From IMG/VR virus record IMGVR_UViG_2695420747_000011, positions 1-14,262 of that record: DNA of 14,262 nucleotides. One strand, given 5' to 3'. Below the pieces are notes generated by a model. The model was not told the origin of the DNA. It did no database searches and was given only the letters and a program-made list of their open reading frames with translations. This DNA comes from a virus. Lineage: Duplodnaviria > Heunggongvirae > Uroviricota > Caudoviricetes. Numbering within the stretch: position 1 is the stretch's first letter; each line of letters opens with the position of its first letter. Shown here one piece after another: positions 1,705 to 6,061 of the stretch. The position numbers were made by a program, and so were the translations under genes.

Positions 1705-1860
1705 TTACTCCTCAGGTTCGTAAGCTGTGAAGACAGCGACCTCCGTCTGGCCGGTTCGGATTCGTACCTCGCAGAGGTCTTTCCTCGTTACCAGTGCCGT
1801 CACCATGACGGTTAAACAGATGACGATCAGGGCGATTAGCATCGCCTTTTGCTGCTTCAT
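1705..1860 (-). CDS. hok: Hok/Gef-family type I toxin (51 aa, membrane-active)
   Basis: MKQQKAMLIALIVICLTVMVTALVTRKDLCEVRIRTGQTEVAVFTAYEPEE has the typical Hok/Gef/RelF N-terminal TM helix plus the conserved C...C periplasmic tail. It is near-identical to what I recall for HokD/RelF. SD AAGGAG lies about 9 nt upstream of ATG 1860. Confidence 0.85.
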   Translation of the reverse strand: MKQQKAMLIALIVICLTVMVTALVTRKDLCEVRIRTGQTEVAVFTAYEPEE

Positions 1861-1917
1861 AGCCTGCTTCTCCTTGCCTTTCGGCACGTAAGAGGCTAAC
1901 CTACGTGTGTAGAGCAT
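1705..1917 (-). CDS. mok: mok-like overlapping reading frame (in-frame N-terminal extension of hok, 70 codons)
   Basis: The track ORF MLYTRRLASYVPKGKEKQA-MKQQKAM... starts 57 nt upstream of the hok ATG in the same frame, as in mokC/hokC. By analogy it would couple hok translation. Confidence 0.55.
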   Translation of the reverse strand: MLYTRRLASYVPKGKEKQAMKQQKAMLIALIVICLTVMVTALVTRKDLCEVRIRTGQTEVAVFTAYEPEE

Positions 1918-2151
1918 AGATATGGCCTCAGATTAATGTTAAGCGTCTTGCCGGACGCGTAATGTTAACTGGGGCTTTTCTCTATCTGCCTTTTGGTGTT
2001 CATGCCTGAGACAGATAGCCTCAAGCACCCGCTGCAATTCTACTTAACTCTCCTTTTCCCGCAAACCGTTTTTATCCCCAGCGGCAAATCGAATACACCA
2101 CCAGCGCCACCGCCATCGCAATTCCTACCGTTGTTAATGCTTCAGGCCAGC

Positions 2152-4913: not shown

Positions 4914-5160
4914 TTCTGTTCTCCCACGTTTTCAGACTTTCACCACAGAACGGACAAAATGAAACCCGAACTGGTAATTTAGAAAATTCACCGGAACGCA
5001 ACATCACAAAATCAGGACCGCGAGTTAAACTCTCATTCCAGATTTTGTATATCAGCAGACCTTTTCGCATCGTGTATTCAGCATCATGCTCAAGGGATTT
5101 TGCCAGGGTCGTACACGGTTCTATCTTGTTGCCATAAACCTGGCATTTTGATTTACCCAC
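4906..5160 (-). CDS. hypothetical protein (84 aa) with two Cys pairs
   Basis: GTG start at 5160 with GAAGGAGG upstream; overlaps the methyltransferase stop by 8 nt. Has C6/C16 and a CPFC pair. Confidence 0.45.
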   Translation of the reverse strand: MGKSKCQVYGNKIEPCTTLAKSLEHDAEYTMRKGLLIYKIWNESLTRGPDFVMLRSGEFSKLPVRVSFCPFCGESLKTWENRNE

Positions 5161-5641
5161 TGGTCGCCTCCTTCACAAAAATAATCCAATGTGTTTTATC
5201 GTTCTTACCGGTGCGCTGGCTGATGATTGGTTTCGCGTCGGTTAGTGCCAATATCTGGCGGACAGATATTTGCGTTTCATTCCATTTAAAAATCAGAACG
5301 CCATGTGGCCACAACACACGAAAAGCTTCTTTAAATCCCTGCCGCAAATCATCACGCCAGGTATCTTTATTCAACCGTCCATATTTCTTTCCCATCCAGG
5401 CTTTATCACCAACACACTCAAGATGCGGAGGGTCGAATACAACAACCGGAAACGATGCGTCTGCAAATGGTAATGCTCGAAAATCTGCTATCAGGTCAGG
5501 ACTGATAATCAGGCGTCGTCCATCACACAATGTGTGCTCTTCTTTTCTGATATCGCTAAATATCGCCCGGTCGTCATTCTTATCGAACCAGAACATACGG
5601 CTGCCACAGCACATATCAAGAATGGTTGCCGGTGCACTCAC
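5153..5641 (-). CDS. small SAM-dependent DNA methyltransferase (N6-adenine/N4-cytosine type, DPPH motif)
   Basis: ILDMCCGSR (glycine-rich SAM-binding motif I) is followed about 55 aa later by VVVFDPPH (catalytic motif IV, D-P-P-aromatic/H). Start set at GTG 5641-5639, which has AGGAGG 7 nt upstream and forms a GTGA overlap with the upstream stop. The track ORF extends to 5710 without an ATG. Confidence 0.6.
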   Translation of the reverse strand: MSAPATILDMCCGSRMFWFDKNDDRAIFSDIRKEEHTLCDGRRLIISPDLIADFRALPFADASFPVVVFDPPHLECVGDKAWMGKKYGRLNKDTWRDDLRQGFKEAFRVLWPHGVLIFKWNETQISVRQILALTDAKPIISQRTGKNDKTHWIIFVKEATSG

Positions 5642-5793
5642 TGCGCTACCTCCTGAAAATTCCCCTGATAAAACGCCAGTACGCGCTGCATAACTTCGCT
5701 CTTCCGGCACTCGCGACAGATTATGTTCTGACGCCTGTCGTAGCGACGTATTTCTCCGTCAGGTAATAGCCAGATAAGGTCCGGATCAACCAC
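5638..5793 (-). CDS. possible small ORF (about 51 aa), or the frameshifted C-terminal part of the upstream HTH gene
   Basis: C-terminal part of track ORF 5638..5961 (VVDPDLIWLLPDGEIRRYDRRQNIICRECRKSEVMQRVLAFYQGNFQEVAQ). Candidate GTG start at 5793 overlaps the upstream stop by 8 nt. Its 3' end carries the SD and GTGA overlap for the methyltransferase. Confidence 0.3.
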   Translation of the reverse strand: MVDPDLIWLLPDGEIRRYDRRQNIICRECRKSEVMQRVLAFYQGNFQEVAQ

Positions 5794-6061
5794 AGATGGT
5801 TTCTTCAGCTTTGCCCTTGAGAGTTTTTTTGCGGGCGTTTTGCCAGTCCTTGCGCGCCTGCTCAGACGGGAATACTCCGTAACCGGAATTGTAAACATCA
5901 CCACTGGCGGCCAGCTCCATGCATAAACGACCGACAGACGTATGACTGACACCAATTTCATCCGATAACTGCCGAATCGTGCCTCGTCCGTTAAGGCGTA
6001 CGAATTCCACGATCAGCCCTTTAATTTTTTCCCGCTCTTCTTGTGTAAAAACTTTTGCCAC
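5786..6061 (-). CDS. small HTH DNA-binding protein (91 aa)
   Basis: GTG start at 6061 with AGGAGG 4 nt upstream. Putative helix-turn-helix TIRQLSDEIGVSHTSVGRL. Lies immediately downstream of the O-like gene. Confidence 0.5.
   Translation of the reverse strand: MAKVFTQEEREKIKGLIVEFVRLNGRGTIRQLSDEIGVSHTSVGRLCMELAASGDVYNSGYGVFPSEQARKDWQNARKKTLKGKAEETICG

Follow-up and report, generated by a model that had tools for sequence, protein, structure and literature searches.

A one-nucleotide insertion in an A-run disrupts a DUF977 gene next to a methyltransferase gene in an Escherichia coli prophage

Two overlapping frames and one DUF977 gene

The subject of this analysis is a DUF977 (PF06163) gene within a 14,262-nucleotide stretch of prophage DNA, the IMG/VR record IMGVR_UViG_2695420747_000011 (Caudoviricetes), referred to throughout as the window. 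The gene covers 424 nt of the minus strand (5638..6061), as identified by Pfam, by the Prokaryotic Genome Annotation Pipeline (PGAP) and by alignment, and is disrupted by the insertion of a single A. Two open reading frames (ORFs) occupy its place. The first (ORF1, 6061..5786) encodes 91 amino acids from a GTG start codon to a TGA stop codon at 5788-5786. The second is an ORF of 107 amino acids in another frame that remains open to 5638 (5961..5638). The two share 176 bp (5786-5961), and this overlap includes a homopolymer at 5824-5830, which is T7 on the plus strand and A7 on the coding strand (5830..5824), where it is read as gcAAAAAAActc. At the end of the second frame, the stop codon of the DUF977 gene overlaps the GTG start codon of a methyltransferase gene in the sequence GTGA (5641-5638), with an AGGAGG sequence (5654-5649) located 7 nt upstream of the GTG. 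A first-pass annotation of the window had recorded both ORFs, the T7 run, a further GTG at 5793, the AGGAGG and the GTGA; all of these coordinates are correct on the minus strand, and the overlap of about 175 bp that it described was borne out. Four alternatives were proposed there to account for the arrangement: a sequencing error, a real frameshift mutation, a programmed frameshift, or a separate ORF of 51 amino acids starting at GTG 5793. Runs of this length are not rare in the window, which contains eight homopolymers of at least 7 nt compared with 2.8 in mononucleotide shuffles. The run alone therefore means little, and its significance rests on homology.

The two frames are consecutive halves of one Pfam profile, which agrees with the earlier proposal that they form a single protein of approximately 140 amino acids joined at the homopolymer. 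The PF06163 profile has 134 positions and a gathering score of 22.1 bits. In the Pfam scan, ORF1 matches positions 1-81 (55.8 bits), and the C-terminal 49 residues of the second frame match positions 79-134 (57.6 bits). An in-silico fusion, in which one A is deleted, covers positions 1-134 with 111.6 bits (E=3.9e-32), and the gene thus matches the full-length profile above the gathering score. Over its first 54 residues, the 107-amino acid ORF matched nothing in the scan; the family match falls on residues 55-103 of this frame, and the observation that only its C-terminal part looks protein-like was correct. The residues Y107, N112, C115, E117, M124, R126 and F130 (numbered as in the intact relative P0011) form invariant columns in the alignment and are all present in the second frame, which has no deviations at the 32 columns conserved at 95% or more.

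DUF977 proteins are encoded by a single uninterrupted ORF (~130-145 amino acids), whereas the window gene is frameshifted after codon 79. The ORF1 product as it stands (5786..6061) comprises the winged-helix domain and most of helix 4. It consists of the ancestral residues 1-79 followed by an out-of-frame tail of 12 residues, TLKGKAEETICG, and the TGA; the peptide expected from the truncated product of the A7 allele reads ...ARKKTLKGKAEETICG. The insertion site (5824..5830, minus strand) is CGC AAA AAA A|CT, where the ancestral A6 encodes Arg-Lys-Lys and then Leu. The ancestral C-terminal half, residues 80-140, now lies in the +1 frame (5638..5823, minus strand). This region is without a stop codon and comprises a variable Lys-rich linker and the conserved motif Y-D-R-x-x-N-x-I-C-x-E-C-R-x-S-x-x-M-Q-R-V-L-A-F-Y.

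The first-pass annotation had advised a comparison with related prophages to see whether a single contiguous ORF exists, and such an ORF was found. The intact relatives AREA_492 (95.7% identity) and N18-04097 (85%) both have genes of 423 nt that encode 140 amino acids. At the junction, the sole length difference in the alignment is that the relatives have CGC-AAAAAA-CTC and the window has CGC-AAAAAAA-CTC. The window therefore has a +1 A insertion in the A6 tract that encodes Lys78-Lys79 and, with its 424 nt and frameshift, represents a disrupted member of the family (a pseudogene or truncated allele). Distant full-length relatives (30-47% identity, 117-155 amino acids) always carry both halves in one ORF. 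These came from a HMMER search that covered 1.84 billion cluster representatives exhaustively and found only 99 representatives of the family. The family is common in E. coli: of 5,426 complete genomes, 3,708 were hit in a megablast search with the locus. The K-12 gene ydaW, which might be a DUF977 pseudogene, is recorded only as ‘putative uncharacterized protein YdaW’ (186 amino acids) and was not used. Among the complete genomes, a single 100% match to the locus was found, in E. coli AF39 (NZ_OZ547136.1). In this genome, RefSeq/PGAP lists the locus AC9VS5_RS19450 (424 nt) as a pseudogene, ‘DUF977 family protein, frameshifted’, and the locus is thus already known in its disrupted state.

Inheritance and recurrence of the insertion

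The A7 allele is represented in data from Logan, ENA, NCBI and IMG. The exact 91-amino acid product, including the tail, was found in 36 index blocks and at least 21 contigs. These include Logan assemblies of the SRA runs SRR32301558, SRR20994879 and ERR6052457, metagenome contigs from ENA (one of them a SPAdes NODE contig) and the NCBI assembly GCA_966502365.1. The product is identical to the GenBank proteins CTS68453.1 and STM61802.1, and the allele is also present on one IMG/VR contig. When loci of the window haplotype were fetched, all eight had A7 and were 99.95-100% identical to the window over 2-10 kb. A6 accounts for 117 of the 125 fetched loci in total, with A7 confined to the eight loci of the window haplotype. 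A 121-nt probe across the run gave one 100% match in the complete E. coli genomes, which is A7, and 71 matches at 99.2%; the 59 of these that were listed all span 120 nt, and are thus A6. A gapped pattern scan of IMG/VR gave one A7 against about 115 A6 among the matches listed, and the A6 genes among these are all long ORFs, mostly of 133-146 amino acids.

Homopolymer indels are a classic error of long-read sequencing, and the singleton DUF977 relatives P0105, P0087 and P0001 look like noisy assemblies with several indels. A sequencing or assembly error in the run could therefore be suspected. However, the insertion is not confined to one assembly or platform, and the contigs that carry it come from unrelated projects, AF39 and the IMG genome included, and always show the same haplotype. 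As at least 59 complete genomes with 120 identical flanking bases are called A6, there is no systematic miscalling towards A7. The presence of the same allele across unrelated sources and the lack of such a bias together indicate that the allele is real and inherited. Sequencing error, the first of the four alternatives, was rejected, and its likelihood is close to negligible.

The same change has taken place elsewhere in the family. A search with the 91-amino acid ORF revealed other short DUF977 products that have the same out-of-frame tail and quite different N-terminal sequences. At the DNA level, at least four other diverged alleles show the A6-to-A7 insertion: P0095 (contigs L130 and L131), P0099 (L132 and L133), P0101 (L134) and P0109 (L135). 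Over the first 225 nt, the nucleotide sequences of these four are ~71-72% identical to that of the window, their downstream frame is intact once repaired, and two of them were seen in more than one sample. A probe search of the complete E. coli genomes with the L130 and L132 haplotypes found no A7 copy. One DUF977 lineage has a second A-run 24 nt downstream, and three states of the two runs were found: A6+A7 in the intact allele CDE6306 (L137:427-852), A7+A7 in the frameshifted allele at L132:1501-1930, and A7+A6 in the compensated allele P0100 (L136:601-1026), for which L137 is the closest intact relative. In P0100, the eight linker residues LSRAKLKK are changed to TLKGKAEE, after which the original frame is restored. 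Among other DUF977 singletons, indels were seen in two runs close by, CAAAAC and GCCCGC.

The recurrent insertion and the compensating indel identify the Lys-rich linker as an indel hotspot. This is the pattern that replication slippage, followed by purifying selection, reversion or compensation, would produce. Since the A6 tract is such a hotspot, split DUF977 calls in other genomes are to be read likewise. Judging by the natural truncation alleles and the compensated one, the linker seems able to accept changes in its sequence, and both parts of the protein seem normally to be required on one polypeptide.

Protein architecture and genomic context

An AlphaFold2 model was built on P0011 as an intact proxy, which is identical to the repaired window protein to residue 134 and differs from it at four of the last six residues. 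The model predicts a winged helix (H-H-H-E-E) at residues 7-64 with a predicted local distance difference test (pLDDT) score above 90, followed by a helix at 67-85. Confidence falls to ~55-58 over residues 81-110, with a partial recovery at the C-terminal helices. Z-alpha, the winged helix that binds Z-DNA and Z-RNA, was considered as a match for the N-terminal domain. This resemblance fails on the key residues (the conserved Asn and Tyr of helix 3 that in Z-alpha contact the Z-form backbone), and the domain is accordingly described as a generic winged helix. A decay test on the columns conserved at 95% or more found 0-1 deviations per A7 allele against a background mean of 0.49. This is no signal either way, as expected if the A7 alleles are young. 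D-to-A and D-to-G changes in the VVDPDLIW motif had at first suggested decay, a reading that was abandoned.

The gene downstream of DUF977 (5153..5641, minus strand) encodes a 162-amino acid class I methyltransferase dependent on S-adenosylmethionine (‘TRM11 family’), with an LDMCCGS motif and then a DPPH motif. It has weak Pfam matches to Methyltransf_11/25, below the gathering thresholds, and is probably an orphan prophage DNA methyltransferase. The first-pass annotation had considered the second frame very likely to be translated, as its end carries the AGGAGG and the GTGA. This claim was not supported, since the intact relative N18-04097 has the same GTGA junction. Both elements were inherited from the intact ancestral gene and are no proof that the second frame is translated. 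The strong Shine–Dalgarno element should let the methyltransferase initiate independently. The methyltransferase homologue of N18-04097 is shorter, at 357 nt.

Upstream of DUF977 is a replication gene of the replisome organizer type (6102..7079, minus strand), which is HTH_36/DnaD_N-like, and DUF977 follows the replication module in all relatives examined. In GCA_966502365.1 (L005:2048-2936), a gap of 1 nt compared with the window divides the HTH_36 gene into ORFs of 165 and 112 amino acids. This second indel of the prophage lineage could reflect a genuine mutation or a fault of the assembly. Elsewhere in the window, Rfam matches at gathering level were obtained for the sok antitoxin RNA (1855-2030, minus strand, 117 bits) and for the small RNA DicF (9789-9840, plus strand, 76.7 bits). 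In AF39, the annotation adds dicB, hokD, a YdaT-family gene and RusA, and the combined evidence assigns the window to the early part of a Qin/Rac-like lambdoid prophage. A segment of ~104 nt near dicB and a DUF1482 fragment (~10262-10365, plus strand) is absent from AF39, which is otherwise 99.97-99.98% identical, and the window thus derives from another isolate of this prophage lineage. A T8 run (7687-7694, plus strand; A8 on the coding strand) lies inside a cro-like gene, near its 5′ end. This run is prone to slippage and longer than that of DUF977, but the cro-like gene is intact in both the window and AF39.

Explanations for the A7 allele and comparison with known systems

These observations are best accounted for by a genuine mutation of recent date, a +1 insertion (A6 to A7) within the Lys-Lys codons that open the DUF977 linker of an E. 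coli prophage, and a probability of roughly 85% is assigned to this explanation. Of the four alternatives, it is the real frameshift mutation that is supported. It is proposed that one A was gained through replication slippage in the homopolymer, after which ribosomes would read CGC AAA AAA ACU and terminate 12 codons later. The resulting 91-residue product would keep the N-terminal winged helix but not the C-terminal module, which is the most conserved. Translation from the DUF977 start would end at 5786, leaving the remaining 145 nt to the methyltransferase start unread from there. Translational coupling to the methyltransferase would probably be lost, while that gene would keep its own strong Shine–Dalgarno sequence. 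The downstream frame would still look protein-like only because the mutation is young.

Several points weigh against this explanation. The undecayed downstream frame would fit a young mutation, but would fit continued selection equally well. The exact repaired 140-amino acid protein is absent from a collection of 15 billion proteins, so the immediate intact ancestor of the window haplotype is unsampled. The occurrence of the same change in several lineages is expected for a hotspot, but could also mean that A7 is tolerated or favoured. It is also conceivable that slippage supplies a low level of full-length product.

The recurrence of the insertion has a bearing on programmed recoding and on a phase-variable switch, in which the A-run would toggle DUF977 and possibly the coupled methyltransferase. 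A6-to-A7 changes are present in at least five diverged alleles (that of the window included) with one further allele compensated, and in the window lineage the stop codon of the gene overlaps the start of a DNA methyltransferase gene. Yet the in-frame A6 is overwhelmingly dominant, and the other A7 alleles precede unrelated genes (DUF4406, hypothetical), so that there is no specific link to a methyltransferase. The shift needed at the run is +1 or -2, and the next 0-frame codon is an ordinary ACU. Sequence inspection found no Shine–Dalgarno-like element upstream of the run and no rare or stop codon after it. The 131 nt around the run have no significant RNA structure and fold no better than shuffles (z = +0.57), and a promoter and terminator scan of the surroundings gave nothing above background. 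The site thus does not combine a slippery motif suited to the direction of the shift with a stimulator, and no stimulatory element is present. A programmed site would be conserved, but the diverged relatives have A6 and a single ORF in place of the two frames, and A7 is rare and near-clonal; a programmed frameshift, as listed among the alternatives, was rejected. Regarding transcription, runs of at least 7 T or more than 7 A are reported to be required before slippage of the E. coli RNA polymerase becomes detectable (Koscielniak et al. 2018, PMC6260861). The A7 run does not exceed this threshold and is not conserved, which does not agree with programmed transcriptional slippage. Phase variation would appear as ON and OFF tracts among near-identical isolates, but all eight loci of the lineage are A7, so no switching is seen, and the exact repaired protein was found nowhere. 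A run of 6-7 nt is also short compared with typical contingency tracts. As the A7 lineage is near-clonal, nothing suggests long-term maintenance, and this group of mechanisms is extremely improbable. It is highly unlikely, too, that the A-runs of the linker act as a recurrent and reversible switch that uncouples the winged-helix domain from the C-terminal module. If this were true, a protein with the winged helix only could have its own activity, perhaps a dominant-negative one, and the coupling into the downstream DNA methyltransferase would change in lineages such as that of the window.

Two further explanations concern the products of the A7 allele. In a leaky, non-programmed rescue, the allele would yield a small fraction of full-length DUF977 and would be a hypomorph, or ‘bridging intermediate’, and not a null. 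The tRNA-Lys could slip by +1 (or -2) on AAA AAA A, or the RNA polymerase could drop one A. According to Rockah-Shmuel et al. (2013, PMC3812077), partial bypass is frequent for frame-shifting indels in homonucleotide runs of 3-8 nt, above all where the run lies between conserved motifs. The site here is at the start of a variable linker, eight residues of which are replaceable in the compensated P0100, and the downstream frame is intact. Against this, the run is A7 on the coding strand, where the polymerase needs more than 7 A (PMC6260861), and the lack of structure, of an upstream Shine–Dalgarno-like element and of a rare or stop codon after the run applies here as well. A7 alleles are also infrequent and form no lasting diverged clades, and such a rescue is considered unlikely. 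A decidedly smaller chance is given to a split gene, in which the 91-amino acid winged-helix protein and a 51-amino acid fragment from GTG 5793 would both be made and work as separate polypeptides, with the coupling to the methyltransferase preserved. This GTG (5791..5793, minus strand) overlaps the end of ORF1 (TGT GGT TGA), a geometry that permits termination-reinitiation and makes it a possible start for the fragment. The break also separates the N-terminal domain, which is modelled with confidence, from the C-terminal module. However, the sequence before the GTG is only weakly Shine–Dalgarno-like, and no natural two-gene arrangement was found among relatives, as full-length homologues down to ~30% identity are single ORFs. 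The end of ORF1 also differs in the other A7 alleles, for example after 116 amino acids in P0095. The 51-amino acid ORF was called by no gene caller on any contig, and neither its sequence nor the exact sequence of the 107-amino acid ORF is present in the 15-billion-protein collection.

In the case of a genuine and recent insertion, a protein-like second frame and a conserved Shine–Dalgarno/GTGA junction after a homopolymer are the look of a young frameshift pseudogene and not evidence of recoding. For annotation, it follows that the 91-amino acid ‘putative prophage protein’ entries CTS68453.1 and STM61802.1 are truncated DUF977 alleles. The case is an ordinary one and matters little beyond annotation.

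Among known recoding sites, those of dnaX (A AAA AAG, -1) and prfB (+1) and the A6G/A7 motifs of insertion sequence (IS) elements have features that are general knowledge, and the likeness to the window lies in the A-run and the Lys codons. The window differs in that +1 or -2 is needed, in that it has no conserved two-frame organisation and no stimulator, and in that the shifted state is not conserved. A closer likeness exists to the bypass cases of PMC3812077, which share a recurring indel in an A-run of 6-7 nt between conserved motifs, with a compensating indel in a relative. The difference is that a chromosomal prophage and the E. coli RNA polymerase acting on A7 argue for very low rescue here.

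The nearest known locus is that of AF39, which is 100% identical over a 511-nt probe and has the same A7 and the same neighbouring genes. The window differs from it at three positions and by the extra segment of ~104 nt near dicB. The DUF977 family is called ‘LygF’ in phage GenBank records (Rac-SA53, mEp460) and in the Sdr I region of Salmonella Enteritidis, and a literature search for functional studies of DUF977 or LygF returned none, with DUF977 mentioned in a single paper. The window gene resembles the family in its position directly after the lambdoid replication module, in its match to the whole profile after deletion of the additional A, and in having kept the winged helix at the N-terminus and, at the C-terminus, the motif Y..N..C.EC.R.S..M.R...F. 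It is set apart from the family by the +1 frameshift that interrupts it after codon 79.
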